From: Candidatus Levyibacteriota bacterium
Lineage (GTDB): Bacteria > Patescibacteriota > Microgenomatia > Levybacterales > UBA12049
Assembly (NCBI GenBank): GCA_016182235.1
Contig: JACOXT010000003.1
Location: 258,209 to 322,208, forward strand
Length of the DNA stretch: 64,000 bases
Reading direction: 5' to 3'
In this document: positions 3,411 through 15,345 of the stretch, in pieces
How the letters are laid out: each line of letters starts with the position of its first letter
Numbering within the stretch: the stretch's first letter is position 1
Position numbers and translations under genes: made by a program
Notes under the pieces: model-generated
Database searches by the model: none
What the model was told of the DNA's origin: nothing
What the model saw: the letters and a program-made list of their open reading frames with translations, nothing else

Positions 3411-5040
3411 AATGAATAGTACAAAGACTCTTAATATTTCACTAAATAATTCTTCTTTTGCAAAAAAGATATCTCAATTTTGGGCAAGATACCATGTGTC
3501 TATCATTATAACCCTCCTTATTATCGCGTCGGTATTTGCTTTTGGTGTTTATTATTTGAATGGGTTAGGGTTGTCTTATAATGATGCTCGTTCGCATCTT
3601 GATATCGGACGGCGCGTTGTTGAAGGGTTAAAACCTGGGCTTGCTCAGCTTGGTTCAGTATGGCTTCCTCTTCCCCATATCCTAATGGTTCCAACGATTT
3701 GGAATGATTTTTTCTGGCACTCGGGCCTTTCAGGAGCAATTCAGTCTATGGTTTCTTTTGTCACAACAGCGGTAATAATCTATATGTTCCTGAAAAAAAT
3801 TGGGGTTTCAATATTTGGCAGGATTATTGGAGTTTTAATTTTTACTCTCAATCTCAATATTTTATACCTTCAGTCAACTGCAATGACAGAACTTCTTCTT
3901 ATCGCGACAATGACTACAGGAGTTTACTATCTTATGCTTTGGTCGAAAGATGAAAGAATATTAGATCTTATAAAATCAGCTTTTTTTGTTATGCTTTCGA
4001 CGCTTGTTCGATATGACGGATGGTTTTTACTTATACTCTCAATTATTCTCATCGCGATAGAAGTTTTGAGGAAAAAAGGGTATAAGGTGACTGAGGGAAC
4101 AGTTATTTTATTTGCAACACTTGCAGGATTCGGTGTTGCACTGTGGTTTTTATGGAATCTTTTGATCTTTAAAGACGCACTGTACTTTATTTACGGGCCT
4201 TATTCTGCCCGCGCGCAACAGCTTCAGCTTGAAGAAGCAGGAGTATTAGCAACCAAAGGTGATATTTTCTTCTCAACAAAAGTTTATCTTTACGCGCTTT
4301 TATACAGCTCAAACGCTTTCATTACGATTTTAGGATCTATCGGAGCGGTTATTTTCTGGCTGGACAAAAAAATAAAAACATCGATCAAGATTGTATCAAC
4401 CGCTCTTTTTGCTCCTCTTGCTTTTAACATTTTAGCTCTATATTTGGGCCACTCAGTTTTATTCGTCCAAGGGTTATCAGGCGACACATGGTTTAATGTC
4501 CGATACGGAGTAATGATGATGCCCCCAATTGCCATATTTGTTGGTTATCTTACGCATAAAGCAACATCATTGAAGTATGTTTTGGTGGGTCTTATTACTT
4601 TTGTTTTATTCTTTTCTTTTGTAAATCTTGACGCGGTTACAATTGACGACGCAAGAGTTGGATCAAGTCAGAAAAATGTTTCGGAGGTAAGTAATTGGTT
4701 AAAAAACAATGCTGACAAAGATGGATTTATTCTTATTTCCGCTGCCTCGCATGATGCTATAATATTTTCTTCAGGTTTTCCCATGAGTAAATTTATCCAT
4801 GAAGGTACGGGAGCCTATTGGGAAAGCGCAACAATCTCTCCTGACCGTTGGGCGCGCTGGATTGTCATGAGGACAAATGACGTAAACGATTCAACATTTA
4901 AACTTGTAAGCGAAAGCAAAGCGTATGAGTTAGGTCGATACACTCTTGTTAATCATTATCCATTCGCGGATATATATGAAATTAAGCCGGAGTTTGTTGA
5001 GAACCTAAACACTGAGTTTTCAATTAGAATAAGCAAATAA
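3403..5040 (+). CDS. polytopic membrane protein, GT-C fold (ArnT/PMT-like) glycosyltransferase candidate
   Basis: 545 aa and multi-TM, with an acidic first loop (SYNDARSHLDIGRR) and a C-terminal soluble domain. It overlaps the upstream gene by 8 nt. Confidence 0.45.
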   Translation: MNKMNSTKTLNISLNNSSFAKKISQFWARYHVSIIITLLIIASVFAFGVYYLNGLGLSYNDARSHLDIGRRVVEGLKPGLAQLGSVWLPLPHILMVPTIWNDFFWHSGLSGAIQSMVSFVTTAVIIYMFLKKIGVSIFGRIIGVLIFTLNLNILYLQSTAMTELLLIATMTTGVYYLMLWSKDERILDLIKSAFFVMLSTLVRYDGWFLLILSIILIAIEVLRKKGYKVTEGTVILFATLAGFGVALWFLWNLLIFKDALYFIYGPYSARAQQLQLEEAGVLATKGDIFFSTKVYLYALLYSSNAFITILGSIGAVIFWLDKKIKTSIKIVSTALFAPLAFNILALYLGHSVLFVQGLSGDTWFNVRYGVMMMPPIAIFVGYLTHKATSLKYVLVGLITFVLFFSFVNLDAVTIDDARVGSSQKNVSEVSNWLKNNADKDGFILISAASHDAIIFSSGFPMSKFIHEGTGAYWESATISPDRWARWIVMRTNDVNDSTFKLVSESKAYELGRYTLVNHYPFADIYEIKPEFVENLNTEFSIRISK

Positions 5041-5056
5041 TTATAAGAATATAAAT

Positions 5057-6082
5057 ATGTTTATAAAAATATATGTTTTATTATTATTGATTTTAACAGT
5101 AACTGTCGGGATTTTTTTTCTTAATAAGGCTGACGATTTTAAGTTAAAGAATCCAGTGTCTCCTGAAAGGAAAGATCTTAGGAGAATTACCTCAGTTGAC
5201 ACAATGAAATATTCAAGAGATATTGCACGGGAGAAGCTTAAAGATTTGTCTTTTGACAATACTATAGAAAAACAAGTGAGAGATGTTGCTGCAACAGGAG
5301 CAACTCATGTGGCGGTAGGTACTCCTTATGATGACGAGTTCTTGCCATACCTAGACCGTTGGGTATCAACAGCAAGAAAATATAATCTCAGCGTCTGGTT
5401 TCGCGGAAATTTATCTGGGTGGGAAAAGTGGTTTGATTATCCTACAATTGGAAGGGATGAACATACGGCAGGGATAGTTAAATTTATTAATAACAACAAA
5501 TCTCTTTTTGAAGACGGAGATATTTTTGTGACTTGCAATGAATGCGAGAATGGCGGACCGGGAGATCCAAGGCATAATGGAGATGTTGCGGGTCATAGGG
5601 AGTTTCTGATCAAGGAATACAAGGAAGCAAAAAAGGCATTTGAGAAAATAGGTAAAAAGGTAGCTGCAAATTTTAACTCTATGAATGGAGACGTCGCTCG
5701 TTTAATTATGGACAAGGAAACAACAAAGGCGTTAGGCGGAATTGTTGTTGTAGATCATTATGTAAGAAGTCCCGAAGTTTTGGCAGAAGATCTAAAAAAC
5801 ATAGCGGAAAAAAGCGAAGGCAAAATAGTCCTTGGAGAATTCGGTGTGCCAATTCTGGACATAAACTCAGATATGACAGAAGAAGAGCAAGCGGATTGGA
5901 TAAACGAAGCTTTGGCACGAATATTTCTGATCCCAGAAGTAATAGGTGTAAATTATTGGGTAAATTTGGGAGGATCTACAAGTATTTGGAACGAAAATGG
6001 AAGTAAGAAATCCTCTGTTGATGTTATAACAAGTTATTACACAAAAAATAAGAAGAAGCTTCCTCGAAATCCTATTTTTTAA
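5057..6082 (+). CDS. membrane-anchored clan GH-A (GH5-like) TIM-barrel glycoside hydrolase candidate
   Basis: N-terminal TM segment. The NECENG and LGEFG motifs are spaced like the acid/base and nucleophile glutamates of clan GH-A enzymes. Confidence 0.45.
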   Translation: MFIKIYVLLLLILTVTVGIFFLNKADDFKLKNPVSPERKDLRRITSVDTMKYSRDIAREKLKDLSFDNTIEKQVRDVAATGATHVAVGTPYDDEFLPYLDRWVSTARKYNLSVWFRGNLSGWEKWFDYPTIGRDEHTAGIVKFINNNKSLFEDGDIFVTCNECENGGPGDPRHNGDVAGHREFLIKEYKEAKKAFEKIGKKVAANFNSMNGDVARLIMDKETTKALGGIVVVDHYVRSPEVLAEDLKNIAEKSEGKIVLGEFGVPILDINSDMTEEEQADWINEALARIFLIPEVIGVNYWVNLGGSTSIWNENGSKKSSVDVITSYYTKNKKKLPRNPIF

Positions 6083-6145
6083 TCTTATAGAAATCATCTT
6101 AAATTTATCTATTTGGCTTTTTAATAATCTAAATTATTAGAAGAT

Positions 6146-9530: not shown

Positions 9531-10268
9531 ATGAAAGGTATAATCTTAGCTGGAGGACTAGCAACACGTCTTCGTCCGTTGACTTTGGTAACAAATAAAC
9601 ATCTTCTTCCTATATACAATAAGCCCATGATTTATTATCCACTTGAAGCTATGAAAAAGTCGGGTATAAAAGAGGTTCTTTTAATTACTTCTCCCCATCA
9701 TGCCGGAGACTTTACAAACCTTTTAGGCAATGGTGAAGAATTTAATCTAAAACTTTATTATGCGATACAAAAAAACCCGACAGGAGGAATTGCGGATGGA
9801 TTGAAACTTGCCCGGGAGTTCGCGAAAAACGAAAAAATTTTGGTTATTCTTGGGGATAATATTTTTGATTTCAATCTGAAAAAAGCTATCGAAAAGTTTG
9901 ATAAAAGACAAAAAGGAGCAGTGGTGTTCGGTATAGATATGGATACAAAATCTAAACAATATGGAGTAATTGAGATTGGAAGAACCGGAAAAGTATCATC
10001 AATTGAAGAGAAACCGGATAATCCTAAGTCCAGAATTGCCCAGACGGGAATTTATATGTATGATGATAGAGCTTTCGATTTTATAGATAAGCTGAGGCCT
10101 TCCGGAAGAGGTCAGCTTGAGATAACTGATTTAAATAATTGTTATCTTAAAGAGGGAACGTTGGAATGCGAAACAATTGATTGGTGGATAGACGCTGGAA
10201 CTTCACATGACGAGTTACTAAGAGCAAATAATTTAGTTGCAGAGAAAGTAAAAAAAAGAAAGTTATAA
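9531..10268 (+). CDS. sugar-phosphate nucleotidyltransferase (short-form glucose-1-phosphate thymidylyltransferase-like)
   Basis: N-terminal MKGIILAGGLATRLRPLT signature; 245 aa; clustered with rfbB. Confidence 0.75.
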   Translation: MKGIILAGGLATRLRPLTLVTNKHLLPIYNKPMIYYPLEAMKKSGIKEVLLITSPHHAGDFTNLLGNGEEFNLKLYYAIQKNPTGGIADGLKLAREFAKNEKILVILGDNIFDFNLKKAIEKFDKRQKGAVVFGIDMDTKSKQYGVIEIGRTGKVSSIEEKPDNPKSRIAQTGIYMYDDRAFDFIDKLRPSGRGQLEITDLNNCYLKEGTLECETIDWWIDAGTSHDELLRANNLVAEKVKKRKL

Positions 10269-10299
10269 CTCAAAGCAAATAAATTTCTATGGCAAATGT

Positions 10300-10908
10300 A
10301 TGACCCAAAAACCCAAGACAGATAATGAATGTCTCGCGGAGCGAGATCCTGCTTCGCAGGAGAAAATCACTTCCCAGAAAACAGTATTTAAAACAAAGCT
10401 TTTTAATGTTGAGGAAATAGATTATTTAGATAAAAATAAATACAAGAAGATAGATTTTGTTGCCAAGCGTATATCAACAGTTACAGTATTACCGCTAACA
10501 GATGACAATGAAATTTTTTTAGTGCGTCAATATAGAAGAATGTTAAATAGGACTACGCTTGAGGCTGTTGCCGGATATATTGAAAAACGAGAAACCATAT
10601 TGGAAGCCGCAAAAAGAGAACTTAAAGAAGAGACAGGCATAATAGCAGTACAATGGGAGGAGATAGCAAGAGTAGAAATGGCAGCTAGTGCATTTAATGG
10701 GAAATTACACTTGTTTATGGCAACTGGTTTGGATTATGAAGAATCCACGCCTGATGAAGAAGAAGAGATATCAGTGATTAAAATACCCCTTTTGGATGCA
10801 GTAGAAAAAGTAATGGCTGGAGAGATTAATCATACAGACAGCATGATTGGAATATTAATGCTGTATAAGATAAGAGCTCCAAGAAAAACAAGACAATCAA
10901 AATCATGA
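10300..10908 (+). CDS. NUDIX hydrolase
   Basis: Nudix box GYIEKRETILEAAKRELKEETGI. Confidence 0.8.
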   Translation: MTQKPKTDNECLAERDPASQEKITSQKTVFKTKLFNVEEIDYLDKNKYKKIDFVAKRISTVTVLPLTDDNEIFLVRQYRRMLNRTTLEAVAGYIEKRETILEAAKRELKEETGIIAVQWEEIARVEMAASAFNGKLHLFMATGLDYEESTPDEEEEISVIKIPLLDAVEKVMAGEINHTDSMIGILMLYKIRAPRKTRQSKS

Positions 10909-10921
10909 AAGTTCTATAACT

Positions 10922-10951
10922 GGCGGTGCTGGAGTTTACCCAGCACCAGCC
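10922..10951 (+). terminator. hairpin terminator candidate after the NUDIX gene
   Basis: GGCGGTGCTGG-AGTTTAC-CCAGCACCAGCC, followed by TTTAGTATTT. Confidence 0.5.
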
Positions 10952-10991
10952 TTTAGTATTTGGCTTAAGGAAATAAAATTAATGTTAAAGC

Positions 10992-12023
10992 ATGGATAAA
11001 TCTAGAAAAAGAATACTTGTTACGGGTGGTGCTGGGTTTATAGGCAGCAATTTTATTCTTTATTGGTTGAAGAAGTATCCTAATGACAAGATTATAAATC
11101 TTGATAGTTTAACTTATGCCGGGAATTTGGAGAATTTAAGGTTAATTGAGAGAAACCTCAATTATTCATTTGTCAAGGGAAATATCTGTGATTTAGATAT
11201 TGTTGAAAAGTCAATGCAGGGTGTAGATACAGTTGTACATTTTGCTGCGGAGAGTCATGTGGATCGGTCAATAAAAAAGCCCTCAGATTTTATATTAACA
11301 AATGTTGTTGGTACGCAAATATTACTTGATGCGGCTTTAAGAAATGACGTTAAGAGATTCCACCACATTTCTACAGATGAGGTTTATGGGAGCCTTGAAT
11401 TACGCGATACGAATAAATTTAATGAACGAACAAATTATAATCCCAGAAGTCCATATTCAGCAAGCAAAGCAGGATCAGATCATTTAGTAAAGGCATATTA
11501 TGAAACTTATGGTTTGCCAATCACCATTAGCAATTGCTCCAACAACTTCGGACCATATCAATTTCCAGAAAAGATGATTCCTCTTGCGATAACAAATGTA
11601 ATCGAGGATAAAAAAGTTCCAGTTTACGGAGATGGTCTTTATGTCAGAGATTGGCTTTATGTAGAGGATCACTGTCGAGCGATAGATTTAATATTGCAAA
11701 AAGGAAAAGTTGGAGAGACTTATTGTATTGGCGGTTTAACAGATGACATTAACAACCTAACTGTGGCTCGTAAAATACTTAAAATTCTTGGTAAGGATGA
11801 AAACATGCTTGAATTTGTAAAAGATCGTCCAGGGCACGATAGGAAATATGCTATTGATTGGTCAAAGATAAAGAGTGAGCTTGGATGGGGCCCGTTACAT
11901 AGTTTCGACGAGTGGCTTGAGAAAACTGTTGAATGGTACAGAAATAATGAGAGATGGTGGAAGAGATTAAAGACTAAAGAATTCCAAAAATACTACGAAG
12001 AGCTGTACGGGGACTTGGATTAA
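10992..12023 (+). CDS. rfbB: dTDP-glucose 4,6-dehydratase
   Basis: GGAGFIGSNF Rossmann motif, the YSASK catalytic motif, and RmlB-like sequence over the full length. Confidence 0.85.
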   Translation: MDKSRKRILVTGGAGFIGSNFILYWLKKYPNDKIINLDSLTYAGNLENLRLIERNLNYSFVKGNICDLDIVEKSMQGVDTVVHFAAESHVDRSIKKPSDFILTNVVGTQILLDAALRNDVKRFHHISTDEVYGSLELRDTNKFNERTNYNPRSPYSASKAGSDHLVKAYYETYGLPITISNCSNNFGPYQFPEKMIPLAITNVIEDKKVPVYGDGLYVRDWLYVEDHCRAIDLILQKGKVGETYCIGGLTDDINNLTVARKILKILGKDENMLEFVKDRPGHDRKYAIDWSKIKSELGWGPLHSFDEWLEKTVEWYRNNERWWKRLKTKEFQKYYEELYGDLD

Positions 12024-12054
12024 GTAAGAGAATTTGTAAATTTTCTAAGTGCAA

Positions 12055-12606
12055 TTATTTATTAGGTTTATCCAGAGCATTCTGAGGACGAATAATTTCG
12101 TTAAGAAATCTAAAAGTTTTAGGGGTTCTTCTTTGAGTGATGGTTTGTGATTGAAACTTTGCTCTAGGGAAGAAATCGTAATGCCGTATCGTTAAAATCT
12201 CTACTCCTTCTTTTGTGGTAATGCTGTTTTGGGTACTTCTTCCTTCAAAGAAAAGTTGATCACTAATACTTTGGAATCCCTTATATCTACTTTTGCATAC
12301 GAAAATATAACCTGGTTCATAACCATACATTCCTGCATCATCTGTCAGATCAACGTTAATTTTTGGGCAGTAGATAATTCGTTGTAAAACCTCTGGTGTA
12401 AAAAATTTCCTAAGCTCTTCTTCAGATGGCTCATGCTCTCTGTTTAGCTCAGTGCGGATCTTGTCGTCGCTTGGATAGCCATTTGGTATTTTTAGAAAAG
12501 GTATATCATACTCTTCAATTTCAGGAAGAGGGGAATCAAGATCATTTTTAGGTTGGAATTTCTCTATATCTTTACCTTCGTCGCTGTTCATAAATGTTAT
12601 TAACAT
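12055..12606 (-). CDS. hypothetical protein (orphan; not recognised)
   Basis: 183-aa ORF convergent with rfbB. A TTGACT-N17-TATTAT promoter abuts the first ATG, so the second ATG (12591) may be the true start. Confidence 0.5.
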   Translation of the reverse strand: MLITFMNSDEGKDIEKFQPKNDLDSPLPEIEEYDIPFLKIPNGYPSDDKIRTELNREHEPSEEELRKFFTPEVLQRIIYCPKINVDLTDDAGMYGYEPGYIFVCKSRYKGFQSISDQLFFEGRSTQNSITTKEGVEILTIRHYDFFPRAKFQSQTITQRRTPKTFRFLNEIIRPQNALDKPNK

Positions 12607-12808
12607 AATATTAAATTAATTTTAAATAGTCAATGGTAAATTGTCGTACGACCCCCTGGGGTCGAGTCTCGATAAACATCCAAAACCAAGAGATGATTTA
12701 ATTTCCTTAATGACATGACAACTTTGAGGAAGGCGAAATTACTACAGCACTTGTAAAGGGAATTTTATAAATTGAAAAACTCATTATGTTTTCAGAATCC
12801 GACCGTTT

Positions 12809-12840
12809 AATAGTTCAATAGTTTAAACTATTGAACTATT
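12809..12840. promoter_or_regulatory. perfect 32-bp palindrome of four AATAGTT heptads (operator candidate 1)
   Basis: AATAGTTCAATAGTTTAAACTATTGAACTATT equals its own reverse complement. Related copies lie at 13863 and 14362. Confidence 0.6.
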
Positions 12841-12982
12841 GTTTATATCGTGCGGCGACCCCGCGGGTTGAGCCTAGTTTTTCACTATCACCGTACTACA
12901 GTGCGTGGTAGTTATACAGATAGAATTACCATTTAACTTATTGGTTGATATTATGTACATGTGTAACAGGGGTTTATGAAGC

Positions 12983-13405
12983 TTATTTATAGTTCTCAAG
13001 CATAACTACTGTGCCATCGGTTATCTTACCATGTGCTTTGGCATCGGCGCTAATTAGTTTGGCATACTCGTCTTTTGCTGTTGCTACAAACAGTGCATCA
13101 TACGCGGCAATATTATAGGCTTCCATAATTTCTATTGTTTGATCTAATATTGCTTGAGATGATTCTTTTATGACTAGAGGCAAAGAAAAAAGATCACTTA
13201 TGCTTTTCTTTATTGCTTCAGCCGGCATGTGCTTACCCTTTTTGAGGGTGTTGATAATCTCAATTATGATAAGACTTGGAACAATCAAAAGGATTACGTT
13301 ACCCAACATGTCTTTGTAAATTTCATGAGCAATCTCAACACTTGATTCATTTTCTTGATTAAACCATTTAAGAACTACAGAGGTATCTACGACGTAAGTT
13401 TCCAT
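12983..13405 (-). CDS. vapC: PIN-domain toxin VapC
   Basis: N-terminal VVDTSV, plus the conserved acidic residues (IIEI, AYDALF, SAD) of PIN nucleases. It sits 3 nt downstream of an AbrB-type antitoxin gene. Confidence 0.8.
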   Translation of the reverse strand: METYVVDTSVVLKWFNQENESSVEIAHEIYKDMLGNVILLIVPSLIIIEIINTLKKGKHMPAEAIKKSISDLFSLPLVIKESSQAILDQTIEIMEAYNIAAYDALFVATAKDEYAKLISADAKAHGKITDGTVVMLENYK

Positions 13406-13408
13406 AGT

Positions 13409-13705
13409 TTAGAAATGAGTATCTCTATCGTGGCGTAAGAATTTAGTCAAATTGACACCTTGCTTGCCTAACTTGCTAATCCGTTTCATATCTTCCCATA
13501 TTCTTTCGCCCTCTTCCTTCGTCAACTTTTTTTTGGGATGTTGAGGGTGGGAAATAGGCACACGTTCCACTCTAAACCCAGAGGGTGTAGTCTCAATTTT
13601 TACTGTTAATTCTTCATCATGCCAATTTAAAGCCTCCCTTATTTCATTAGGAACTGTTAACTGACCCCTTTCTCTTACTCTAGTAATTTTCTGTATGTAA
13701 TTCAT
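13409..13705 (-). CDS. vapB: SpoVT/AbrB-type antitoxin VapB
   Basis: RGQLTVPNEIREAL swapped-hairpin motif. I chose the ATG at 13705 because TTGACA-N17-TATTCT-N7 precedes it. The track start at 13741 is a TTG inside the -35 hexamer. Confidence 0.7.
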   Translation of the reverse strand: MNYIQKITRVRERGQLTVPNEIREALNWHDEELTVKIETTPSGFRVERVPISHPQHPKKKLTKEEGERIWEDMKRISKLGKQGVNLTKFLRHDRDTHF

Positions 13706-13712
13706 ATAAATC

Positions 13713-13741
13713 AGAATATCAGAATAATCGTATTGTGTCAA
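13713..13741 (-). promoter_or_regulatory. promoter of vapBC (TTGACA-N17-TATTCT), 7 nt before the ATG
   Basis: The hexamers were read on the minus strand. The geometry implies a leaderless or near-leaderless transcript. Confidence 0.45.
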
Positions 13742-13862
13742 TATGGCAAAGTATGTATAATTGTGTTAATGAAGATTTTGGGGACGGCGGAGCTACCACA
13801 ATATCTGTAAAAGGATTTTTGTAACTCAAAAAACTCACTTCATATTCAAAATCCAGTCGTAT

Positions 13863-13890
13863 AATAGTTCAATAGTTTAAACTATTGAAC
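13863..13890. promoter_or_regulatory. heptad palindrome copy 2 (24-bp perfect core GTTCAATAGTTTAAACTATTGAAC)
   Basis: AATAGTTCAATAGTTTAAACTATTGAAC. It lies 7 nt beyond the stop of the YerC/TrpR-like gene. Confidence 0.55.
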
Positions 13891-13897
13891 CAAAGCA

Positions 13898-14356
13898 TTA
13901 AAACTTTTCTCTAATAATTTTTCTTTTAACTAATTCTTTTCCTTTTTTGCTTTTATTTTCAAAAGCTATACTTCCAAAACGTTTTGGCGGAGATAATTTG
14001 ATTAATATTTCTTCTACCTTATCGACTAGCGCTTCTTTGTTTTGTGCTTTTAATATGCTATCGACGACTTTTCTATAGCCGCTTTTTCCGTTTTTTAGCC
14101 AAAAAGAAACGCGCATAATCGTTGCGCGAGAAACTTTTAGCGTATCGTCAATCTCATCGTAAGTTTTCCCCTTAGCTAATAACACTGCTATTGCCAGCCT
14201 TTTTATAAGCATAATTTTTTCTGTAGGGGAAAGCAGATCATCTATAAAGTTCTTAGCCTCACCAGGTGTTCTAATATCTACGATTGTTTTTAAAAAAACC
14301 TGAAAAATTCTGTTTTCTAATTCTTTATCAAGGAATCTTCTGGAGACTTTTGTCAT
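13898..14356 (-). CDS. YerC/YecD (TrpR-like) helix-turn-helix DNA-binding protein
   Basis: Pattern LLSPTEKIMLIKRLAIAVLLAKGKTYDEIDDTLKVSRATIMRV, typical of TrpR-like YerC proteins. The gene is bracketed by the heptad palindromes. Confidence 0.7.
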   Translation of the reverse strand: MTKVSRRFLDKELENRIFQVFLKTIVDIRTPGEAKNFIDDLLSPTEKIMLIKRLAIAVLLAKGKTYDEIDDTLKVSRATIMRVSFWLKNGKSGYRKVVDSILKAQNKEALVDKVEEILIKLSPPKRFGSIAFENKSKKGKELVKRKIIREKF

Positions 14357-14361
14357 GTTGT

Positions 14362-14393
14362 TATAGTTTAATAGTTTAAACTATTAAACTATA
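14362..14393. promoter_or_regulatory. perfect 32-bp heptad palindrome (operator candidate 3) overlapping the regulator's own promoter
   Basis: TATAGTTTAATAGTTTAAACTATTAAACTATA. On the minus strand, TTGACG (14401-14396) -N17- TAAACT (14378-14373) places the -10 at the palindrome centre. The palindrome ends 5 nt before the ATG. Confidence 0.6.
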
Positions 14394-14466
14394 TGCGTCA
14401 AGATCAAGATCTAGGATTAAGTTACAAAATTTAATAAAAGATTTCTATAGATGATATAATCATTGA

Positions 14467-15345
14467 ATGAAGATTTTGGGGATGGGGTTGAGGGGGCTTG
14501 TGGGATCAAGAATTGTTGAGCGACTTCAAGATAAGTATGAATTTGAATCTTCAGGCGTTGATATAACCAATAAAGACGCAAGTGCTCAAATAAAAGATTC
14601 TAATGCCGCTATAGTCCTTCATTTAGCCGCAAAGACAGATGTGGATGGGTGCGAAAAGGATAAGCCCTTAGGTAGTGAAGGAGAAGCTTGGAGGGTTAAT
14701 GTAGAAGGAACAAGAAATATTGCCGATGCGTGTAGAGAGACTAATAAAAAGTTAATCTATTTTTCAACTGATTTTGTATTTGATGGAACCAAGGACTTTT
14801 ATGTTGAAGATGATACTCCAAACCCGGTAAATTGGTATGCACGGACGAAATATGAAGGAGAAAAAATTGTTCAGAGTCTATCAACGTCTTGGTTAATAAT
14901 TAGAATTGCCTATCCTTATAGAGCAAATTTTAAAAAATTAGATTTCTTCAGAGCAATTCTGAAACGATTACAAAAGGGCGAAAAGGTAAATGCGGTTACC
15001 GATCATATTTTCACGCCAACTTTTATTGATGATATTGTAGTCGCCTTGGACAATTTAATTGAAAATAACTCAACTGGAATTTTTCATGTTGTTGGTAGCC
15101 AAGCTTTGACTCCATTTGAGGTTGCCTCTATTATTTGTAAAACTTTTGGTTACGATCAAAGTCTTATCGTAAGAACTACAAGGTCGGAATTTTTTAAGAA
15201 TAGAGCAACTAGGTCTTTTCAACTACACCTTAGAAATGATAAAATAGCAAGATTAGGTGTAAAAATGAAGACTTTTGAAGAGGGAATTAAGGAGATAAAA
15301 AGACAGATGGAAAATTCGGAATTCAAAATTACAAATACTAAATAA
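14467..15345 (+). CDS. dTDP-4-dehydrorhamnose reductase-like (RmlD family) NAD(P)-dependent reductase
   Basis: 292 aa with RmlD-like organisation (LHLAAKTDVDGCE, YARTKYEGE). TATAAT lies 6 nt upstream of the ATG. Confidence 0.65.
   Translation: MKILGMGLRGLVGSRIVERLQDKYEFESSGVDITNKDASAQIKDSNAAIVLHLAAKTDVDGCEKDKPLGSEGEAWRVNVEGTRNIADACRETNKKLIYFSTDFVFDGTKDFYVEDDTPNPVNWYARTKYEGEKIVQSLSTSWLIIRIAYPYRANFKKLDFFRAILKRLQKGEKVNAVTDHIFTPTFIDDIVVALDNLIENNSTGIFHVVGSQALTPFEVASIICKTFGYDQSLIVRTTRSEFFKNRATRSFQLHLRNDKIARLGVKMKTFEEGIKEIKRQMENSEFKITNTK

Follow-up and report, generated by a model that had tools for sequence, protein, structure and literature searches.

The locus considered here raises the question of why the promoter and first codons of one gene should stand repeatedly in the DNA in front of that gene, each time followed by the same palindrome. 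It lies in a metagenome-assembled genome of Candidatus Levybacteria, a member of the candidate phyla radiation (CPR; Microgenomates), within a stretch of 64,000 nucleotides which was analysed as a whole and is called the window below. Between rfbB and a gene for an RmlD-type short-chain dehydrogenase/reductase (the RmlD-like gene, shortened to rmlD), both on the plus strand, are four minus-strand open reading frames (ORFs), namely an orphan, a PIN toxin (vapC), an antitoxin (vapB), and a YerC-like regulator, and on this point the ORF layout agrees with the initial annotation. That annotation regarded the whole interval as one insert of 2.4 kb with duplicated modules, including a decoy of the rmlD promoter, and as the scar of stepwise insertion and duplication. 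Comparison with homologous loci (about 372 kb, designated by L numbers) makes it probable that the modules are leftovers of successive recombination events, which loaded vapBC and the orphan into a variable slot, and that the palindrome is the predicted operator of the regulator.

Repeated Modules and the Source of the Decoy Promoter

The two modules of ~130 nt, first aligned by eye at ~70%, proved to be real repeats: positions 12715–12836 and 13769–13890 are 76% identical over 122 nt free of gaps, and after the palindrome is stripped from both the local alignment score is still 47 versus 16.3 ± 2.5 for shuffled sequences (0/500 as high). The remainder of the modules is ~69% identical, whereas the palindrome is the same in both; one stretch of 29 nt is identical, and each module does end with the reported 28-mer (at 12811 and 13865). 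Module 2 opens, as claimed, with TATAAT-N7-ATGAAGATTTTGGGGA, matching the real rmlD start at 14455–14482. Between 13768–13787 and 14466–14485 19 of 20 positions match, 17 nt of them in an exact run (E = 3e-4 in the window), while the distance from TATAAT to ATG is N7 at the decoy (13756–13761) and N6 at the real gene (14455–14460). All five earlier statements are confirmed, their coordinates shifting slightly.

The source of this copy, designated decoy 2, is indicated by the DNA in which it is embedded. The block 12983–13785, comprising vapC, vapB, and the divergent promoter, is 88.8% identical to L092 and 85.1% identical to L093, compared with 66–75% for rfbA, rfbB, and rmlD. The last 120 nt of the block reach 97–98% identity, including the N7 spacer TGTGTTA, and the homology stops exactly after ATGAAGATTTTGGGGAC (13785). 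In L029, L092, and L093 the real rmlD and vapB lie side by side and diverge, and the window's own rmlD promoter is GATGATATAAT-CATTGA, unlike decoy 2. Because the identity of the block exceeds that of the core genes and the homology ends at 13785, decoy 2 can be read as a donor rmlD promoter with the first 17 nt of that gene, and by this comparison it is imported together with vapBC, the donor lineage having vapB and rmlD as divergent neighbours. The claim of a decoy copy was thus right in that the element is a genuine rmlD promoter and 5' end, and wrong in that it is not this genome's own copy. The block joins a higher identity to foreign DNA with an end point in a short shared sequence, the two features of anchored recombination, and it is direct evidence for horizontal exchange of a toxin-antitoxin (TA) cassette among Levybacteria.

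The cargo itself is of a familiar kind. As in other VapBC type II TA cassettes, the PIN toxin is preceded by an adjacent AbrB/MazE-type antitoxin with a gap of 3 nt, and, as with VapBC acting as mobile cargo, the identity between genomes is far above that of the surrounding core genes; the L092 copy sits together with other TA and Abi genes. The cassette described here differs in carrying a piece of the neighbouring gene (the divergent promoter and 17 nt of rmlD) and a GC-rich hairpin, and no mobile-element genes are recognisable in it. In L092 the slot (3701–6123) is a small defence/TA island with vapBC, a DUF433/DUF5615 pair, and an AbiEii-family gene, and the YerC-like gene is absent from that locus.

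Relics of the rmlD 5' End and Their Probable Transcription

Decoy 1, the counterpart in module 1, matches the rmlD start at 15/21 positions and contains a 4-5-nt duplication (ATGAC ATGAC). Its promoter relic (12690–12702) resembles the GATGATATAAT of real rmlD promoters and is of another type than decoy 2, and to judge from this decay module 1 looks like an older relic. Similar relics stand beyond Pal2, the downstream palindrome of the regulator gene, in other loci: 57 nt in L005, ~90% identical to the rmlD of the same locus (MKILGAGSAGLVGL); 17 nt with TATAAT kept in L026; 22 nt with GTG and TGTAAT, abutting Pal2, in L011; and a more decayed trace in L023. A 50-codon rmlD 5' fragment with a decayed promoter (GGTGATTTAAT) was observed in L029 (3670–3835) between Pal3, the upstream palindrome, and vapBC, that is, on the other side of the regulator, with the intact rmlD 1 kb further on past vapBC; it is an independent scar of the same kind. 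In L001 the sequence ACTATGAAGATTTATCAATG beside Pal3 (5935–5960) has a 10-nt match to the rmlD start and is either a very decayed relic or a chance similarity.

Each module contains a 13-codon ORF, and both ORFs end at the same aligned TAA, exactly as first reported. Only 5/13 residues are identical, and conservation as peptides was rejected, since equivalent relics elsewhere encode unrelated peptides of 7–14 residues; the ORFs are by-products and not genes. This is a caution for annotation, as an intact TATAAT-ATG and a 13-codon ORF can be relics rather than genes.

The initial annotation suggested that the decoy promoter drives antisense transcription into the regulator gene. A TATAAT (or TACAAT) placed 6 nt before ATG heads several operons in the window (plus-strand starts 8322, 14467, 41183, 46480, and 50010), frequently with an upstream TG, which suggests, from sequence geometry, that leaderless mRNAs are common in this Levybacteria genome. 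Since the decoy-2 promoter is intact and promoters of this TATAAT-N6-ATG form are common, a plus-strand transcript that starts at 13769 and heads for Pal2 and the regulator gene's 3' end is likely, and antisense transcription is plausible because the decoy is 97–98% identical to the vapB/rmlD divergent promoter of L093. Decoy 2 thus probably still fires such a leaderless transcript, which would be a side effect.

From here it is a short step to regard the modules as functional regulatory RNA units that couple the expression of the regulator, vapBC, and rmlD, either through a leaderless transcript of ~100–120 nt ending at the Pal hairpin or running antisense into the regulator, or through read-through from the regulator antisense to the rmlD start. 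This proposal draws on the intact decoy-2 promoter with its near identity to the working one of L093, on the leaderless geometry typical of this genome, on the scoring of Pal1 (the palindrome of module 1) as a terminator-like hairpin on the plus strand, and on the first 17 nt of rmlD, which are almost perfect in 4/5 relics although the adjacent spacers have diverged. It is nevertheless considered unlikely. Relics are absent in about half of the syntenic loci (L001, L003, L025, L028, and L090), and those present decay, with TGTAAT/GTG in L011, TTTAAT and the 15/21 matches in module 1, and a worse state in L023. Their lengths differ (17, 17, 22, and 57 nt), and the spacer m, the ~80 nt between relic and palindrome, has no relatives in the other loci. 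Folding of the modules on both strands gave z = −1.7 to −2.1, all of it due to the Pal hairpin, with nothing else significant, and Rfam returned nothing relevant at gathering thresholds for the whole window or at E ≤ 10 for 12000–14600. The absence from so many loci, the decay, the variable length, the unrelated peptides, and the lack of an RNA family or stable fold make a selected role unlikely.

Two origins were tried for spacer m and rejected, decay of rmlD coding sequence (comparison with seven rmlD genes, z ≤ 2.2) and an inverted Pal3-rmlD spacer (equalled by 24/500 shuffles).

The Variable Slot between rfbB and Pal2

The slot between rfbB and Pal2 is filled differently in different lineages. 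In L088 it is empty, rfbB and rmlD overlapping by 4 nt (..AAAATTATGAAAATTTTGGG). L087 and L089 have one co-directional gene of 266–278 aa in this position, and members of the same family are found in L023 and L026; this family (264–278 aa, no Pfam domain; L023 914–1714, L026 1975–2769, L087 4130–4930, L089 4064–4900) may represent the ancestral slot gene and a part of the sugar pathway. In other loci the slot holds a NUDIX gene or unrelated genes of 203, 233, 317, or 437 aa. The closest relative, L090 (YerC 88% identical), is colinear with the window over rfbB, including its 3' end, and over Pal2-YerC-Pal3-rmlD (78% over 950 nt). Between these flanks, which are 1.84 kb apart in the window, it carries only 190 nt, with two GC hairpins, and lacks vapBC, the orphan, and the modules.

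The empty site in L088 and the cargo-free site in L090 bear out the idea that stepwise insertion at the RmlD-like gene's 5' end left scars. They do not bear out a single insert of 2.4 kb, because the YerC-like regulator and its sites Pal2 and Pal3 are conserved at this place and separate from the slot cargo; the synteny with relatives thus speaks for insertion of the orphan, vapBC, and the modules and against insertion of the regulator unit.

Regulator Gene and Its Palindromes

The regulator belongs to the TrpR family in its YerC/YecD branch (PF01371, 58.3 bits versus a threshold of 27; TIGR02531, 42.6 bits versus a cut-off of 42.2 and so marginal). Its best solved relative is PDB 3g1c (3.4e-7), and with 3frw and 3kor the values range from 3e-7 to 1e-5. 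The matched domain covers residues 13–101, the remainder being a K/R/E-rich tail, so that the protein is longer than a small one-domain protein of ~90–110 aa; nearly all of the 120 listed homologues have 152–153 aa. At least 169 homologues exist, nearly all of this length and 60–88% identical, and the window's own protein has the same sequence as HYT07_01775, which is encoded on a 600-kb contig.

The 28-mer TAGTTCAATAGTTTAAACTATTGAACTA occurs three times in 64 kb (12811, 13865, and 14364), where 0 copies are expected by chance, and the third copy sits 6 nt upstream of the regulator start codon, outside both modules. Its core is a 22-bp palindrome of the form 9-N4-9, TTCAATAGT-N4-ACTATTGAA; the symmetry is perfect over 32 nt in Pal1 and Pal3 and over 24 nt in Pal2. 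The arms of Pal1 (12809–12840) and Pal3 (14362–14393) consist of two 8-bp units in tandem, ATAGTTCA ATAGTTTA / AAACTATT GAACTATT, which recall the 8-bp phasing of tandem TrpR binding.

Sites on both sides of the regulator gene were found in 47 of the 58 distinct loci with both flanks available, independently of genomic context and including unrelated neighbourhoods. In the syntenic position the gene is divergent from the RmlD-like gene, with rfbA, the NUDIX gene, and rfbB on the opposite side (Pal2 and Pal3 are both present in L001–L006, L011, L023–L030, L090, and L091), while in distant genomes it is located elsewhere, beside SpoU/GlmS or hrcA-grpE-dnaK. In one Levybacteria subclade the regulator with Pal2 and Pal3 has thus been kept at this site, and in other contexts it forms a unit of its own. 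The upstream 22-mer begins 24–35 nt before ATG (54 loci), and in 34/54 loci TTGAC lies 7–8 nt upstream of it, which places the palindrome over the −10 element of the predicted promoter. The downstream 22-mer begins 0–30 nt past the stop codon and overlaps it in 17 loci. Beyond the flanks of the regulator no Pal site was found in the 372 kb of homologous loci or in the window except Pal1, the only supernumerary copy in the loci examined.

Predicted Operator and Recognition Code

The palindrome had been taken for a part of the insertion scar; its fixed position beside the regulator gene across loci points instead to a putative operator. The recognition helix reads LKVS-77-78-TIM, and the two variable residues covary with the half-sites. 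R77 is accompanied by G at half-site position 8 (151/170 half-sites), H77 by C (19/20), Q77 by C (2/2), and N77 by A (3/4), and at position 4 G is found with S78 (31/34) and A with A, P, or T78 (150/154). Lineage variants shift both arms and both sites jointly, as in TTCGATAGT..ACTATCGAA, TTCAATACT..AGTATTGAA, and TCTAATAGT..ACTATTAGA. The covariation was seen in the flanks of YerC homologues throughout L001–L086, for example in L031–L036, L043–L046, and L053. Palindromes of 20 bp are the binding sites of TrpR-family proteins, YerC (= HisR) among them, and autoregulation applies to about half of the hisR genes (PMC9413887). Because the base changes track residues 77 and 78 and the family binds palindromes of this size, and with a palindrome of ~20 bp upstream of the gene itself in 54 loci at the sequence level, the palindrome is most likely the TrpR-like protein's own operator. 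Binding of the regulator to Pal3 would then result in autorepression, and, more speculatively, Pal2 could take part in looping as a second site, or could hold up convergent transcription as a roadblock.

The likeness to E. coli TrpR and to HisR (= B. subtilis YerC) extends to the shared families PF01371 and TIGR02531, to 3g1c, which is the E. eligens protein named HisR (PMC9413887), to the palindromic site of ~20–22 bp upstream of the own gene, to the core ATAGTT..AACTAT, which resembles the TrpR motif TGTAcTnGTnnACnAgTACA, and to the phasing of half-sites by 8 bp. The differences are no less evident: TrpR and HisR have fewer than 100 aa, versus 152 aa with a basic C-terminal extension of ~50 aa here; the gene belongs to a CPR bacterium, and neither a his nor a trp operon is in view; a second site follows the stop codon directly, so that the gene is bracketed; and the loci examined contain no target genes besides the regulator itself. 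Orthology with HisR was rejected, since the motif differs from cacTTTAnnnnnnTAAAgtg (PMC9413887) and, whereas HisR sites are expected upstream of genes for his biosynthesis or transport, no site apart from the pair flanking the regulator gene, and Pal1, was found in the 372 kb of loci or in the window. The literature searched contained nothing linking TrpR-family proteins to CPR, and this is seemingly the first operator prediction for a TrpR-like regulator widespread in Microgenomates. With it come a simple predicted code for recognition, in which residue 77 corresponds to base 8 and residue 78 to base 4, and an uncommon arrangement of a gene between two sites; as a by-product this prediction is of more interest than the scar.

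Little credence is given to a role of the palindrome in RNA, where its hairpin would terminate or stabilise transcripts, or to its being a generic repetitive extragenic palindromic (REP)-like element. The perfect hairpin directly after the stop codon, overlapping it in the 17 loci mentioned, the greater symmetry of the downstream sites, and the flagging of Pal1 by the terminator scan are what such a role would produce. The same motif, however, stands at a fixed place between −35 and ATG, a position from which the predicted transcript would include only part of the hairpin, a U-tract does not consistently follow it, and its base changes track helix residues 77 and 78; unlike REP elements, it has no other copies in the loci or the window.

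GC-Rich Hairpins and Tandem Units

Module 1 was described as flanked by two related GC-rich 30-mers, and this holds only indirectly. Compared with each other, the two hairpins hp1 and hp2 give a score of 16 versus 12.5 ± 2.0, reached by 80/1000 shuffles and not significant. Both match one element of L089 (4898–4940, between the stop codon of the slot gene and the rmlD promoter), hp1 with a score of 33 versus 15.4 ± 2.5 and hp2 with 41 versus 15.7 ± 2.4 for shuffled sequences, and are therefore regarded as homologous. The same hairpin element follows vapC in L092 and is present in two copies after rfbB in L090, hp1 aligning to one of them. A T-run lies 5–8 nt past the stem in hp2 and in the L089 copy and is missing in hp1; the terminator scan called neither hp1 nor hp2. 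Derivation of the hairpins from tRNA fragments or att sites was rejected, there being no match to tRNA models at E ≤ 10.

On the basis of the hairpin homology to L089, L092, and L090 the window can be parsed into two tandem units, each consisting of a GC hairpin, promoter, rmlD 5' end, the ~80-nt spacer m, and Pal. Unit U1 (12633–12840) is old and decayed, and unit U2 (12839–13892) has vapBC between hairpin and promoter; this parse accounts for the two related 30-mers on either side of module 1.

In the Acinetobacter pdif modules and in integron attC cassettes, short palindromic sites delimit small pieces of cargo, often TA pairs, and the array as a whole varies. The present locus is similar in this respect, which invites the view that its modules and palindromes form part of a specialised mobile system in which crossover takes place at Pal (a miniature inverted-repeat transposable element (MITE), an integron-like attC array, or a Xer/dif-type system). 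Such a system would account for the cassette-like cargo (TA pair and orphan), each preceded by a Pal-ending module, for the abrupt Pal1/hp2 junction, for the identity of Pal against ~69% in the rest of the modules, and for the hypervariable slot. It is very improbable all the same: the slot has no integrase, transposase, or Xer gene; Pal is missing from other variable slots, and a third site exists in the window only; the modules have no other copies; and the right junction of the vapBC block falls in rmlD sequence and not at Pal, whose 9-4-9 symmetry is perfect and which accompanies the regulator gene in every context. In the same way the locus differs from pdif and attC arrays, there being no recombinase, the palindrome belonging to one regulator gene and not to each cassette, and Pal being perfectly symmetric with no asymmetric core and with one extra copy.

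Particular forms of mobile DNA were rejected separately. An integron cassette array is contradicted by the lack of a nearby integrase, by the tie of Pal to the regulator gene, and by the lack of arrays in other loci, and a dispersed repeat or MITE by the lack of further module copies in the window or the ~372 kb of related loci; the hairpins likewise have no further copies in the window. A target-site duplication by a transposon or insertion sequence fails, as no transposase ORF is present and the repeats are ~125–210 nt long and 76% identical; a 22-nt pair at 12014/14411 (rfbB end and upstream of rmlD), tried as a target-site duplication, is expected by chance in ~0.4 pairs and is unsupported by relatives.

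Proposed History of the Locus

The history that would lead to the leftovers starts from an ancestral state in which rmlD followed rfbB directly, or in which rfbB was followed by one slot gene, a GC hairpin, the leaderless promoter, and rmlD. The regulator unit and later the cassettes would have recombined into this place with rmlD homology as the anchor, and the displaced rmlD promoter and first codons would have stayed behind as relics; vapBC of U2 would have been imported from a vapB/rmlD-divergent lineage, with one junction inside the shared ATGAAGATTTTGGGGAC. Repeated anchored recombination is suggested because the foreign block exceeds the core identity, its junction lies in the shared rmlD segment, a displaced fragment remains, and the pattern recurs in several lineages. 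From these sequence traits the character of the mechanism is best fitted by homology-facilitated illegitimate recombination as defined earlier (PMC3240628). As there, and as in the Vibrio cholerae type VI secretion system effector/immunity arrays, outlined as sequential displacement arrays (PMC5361080), one end of the foreign DNA is anchored in a conserved gene; as in that outline of the arrays, displaced fragments remain, and repetition builds a tandem array of relics beside the anchor. With respect to the same outline the locus differs in that its anchor is the rmlD promoter with the first codons, so that the relics are pseudo-promoters with 6–50 codons, and in that the mechanism here is known from sequence alone. 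In this way a puzzling decoy promoter is replaced by a testable history, in which recombination anchored in the 5' end of an operon gene has repeatedly delivered cargo to the glycan locus of a CPR bacterium, with pseudo-promoters as its residue.

Several observations weigh against the reading of leftovers and operator. The order of events behind the two tandem units is not recoverable, the modules being only 76% identical, spacer m without a source, and the Pal1/hp2 junction abrupt. Four relics keep the first 17 nt of rmlD near-intact though the neighbouring N6–8 spacer has diverged. As this stretch is kept while its surroundings changed, gene conversion or selection is conceivable, and the first 17 nt may be subject to gene conversion or weak selection, for instance as recombination anchors or antisense targets. 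The covariation of helix and half-site stems from few clades and hence from few independent events. Finally, perfect arms are found in 27/49 downstream versus 18/54 upstream sites, a difference that fits an RNA hairpin role too.

A combination of these elements is also conceivable, although it seems doubtful: the regulator gene and the operators at its two ends could form an autoregulatory cassette complete in itself, the 3' operator serving as roadblock or looping partner, and the relic units could act as landing pads for TA and defence cassettes at the head of the glycan operon, the captured promoter rewiring the regulator by convergent transcription. If true, the relic units would not be inert and would constitute homology landing pads in these CPR bacteria.

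Features and Neighbouring Genes

The positions of the features are collected in Table 1.

Table 1: Genes, repeats, and predicted sites between rfbB and the RmlD-like gene (window coordinates).
Feature	Position	Strand	Evidence or remark
rfbB, dTDP-glucose 4,6-dehydratase type, left border of variable slot	10992–12023	+	Pfam GDP_Man_Dehyd 5.7e-83
Orphan, 183 aa, lineage-specific slot cargo	12055–12606	−	Own promoter-like TTGACT-17-TATTAT at 12633–12605 (promoter scan)
hp1, GC-rich imperfect hairpin, core 12644–12672	12633–12680	+	Fold −17.1 kcal/mol, z = −2.3; starts U1
Decoy 1: promoter relic GAGATGATTTAAT and decayed rmlD 5' end	12690–12735	+	−10 relic 12697–12702; ATG 12710/12715
Module 1 (decoy 1, spacer m1, Pal1)	12715–12838	+	Alignment to module 2 (13769–13892)
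Pal1, supernumerary copy, 32-nt perfect palindrome	12809–12840; 22-mer core 12814–12835	.	Repeat/palindrome search
hp2, GC-rich hairpin, core 12848–12877, then TTTTT	12839–12885	+	3' flank of vapBC; starts U2
vapC (PIN toxin)	12983–13405	−	Pfam PIN 3.2e-14, 54 bits vs 23.6 threshold; 39 homologues
Horizontally exchanged block: vapC-vapB, divergent promoter, first 17 nt of donor rmlD	12983–13785	−	Identity to L092/L093
vapB (AbrB/MazE-type antitoxin)	13409–13705/13741, probable start ATG 13705	−	Weak family matches
Decoy 2: TATAAT 13756–13761, N7, ATGAAGATTTTGGGGAC 13769–13785	13756–13785	+	Near-identical to real rmlD promoter/start of L093
Spacer m2	13786–13864	+	Homologous to m1 only
Pal2, downstream site, 8 nt past stop codon	13863–13892; 22-mer 13868–13889	.	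Palindrome search, homologous loci
TrpR/YerC-YecD-family regulator, 152 aa	13898–14356	−	PF01371, TIGR02531, PDB 3g1c
Pal3, 32-nt perfect palindrome 14362–14393, 22-mer 14367–14388	14362–14401	−	−35-like TTGACG at 14401–14396
Working promoter and leaderless start (predicted), RmlD-like gene	14431–14485	+	TTAATA-18-TGATATAAT, −10 at 14455–14460; colinear with L090
RmlD-like gene	14467–15345	+	Leaderless start, ATG 14467

The orphan (12055–12606) has no match in Pfam or NCBIfam, and its membership in a slot-gene family was rejected, as it is dissimilar to the slot genes of 13 other loci. The vapB family scores are under the curated cut-offs (18.2 versus 24.7 and 23.3 versus 28.3 for MazE/AbrB), and the gene is preceded by promoter-like TTGACA (13741–13736) and TATTCT (13718–13713) in leaderless geometry.

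The sugar cluster as a whole (9531–15345) contains rfbA, the NUDIX gene, and rfbB and has no recognisable rmlC, and the RmlD-like protein scores 180.5 bits on TIGR01214, where the cut-off is 224. For these two reasons the cluster product is not necessarily dTDP-rhamnose and may be another compound.

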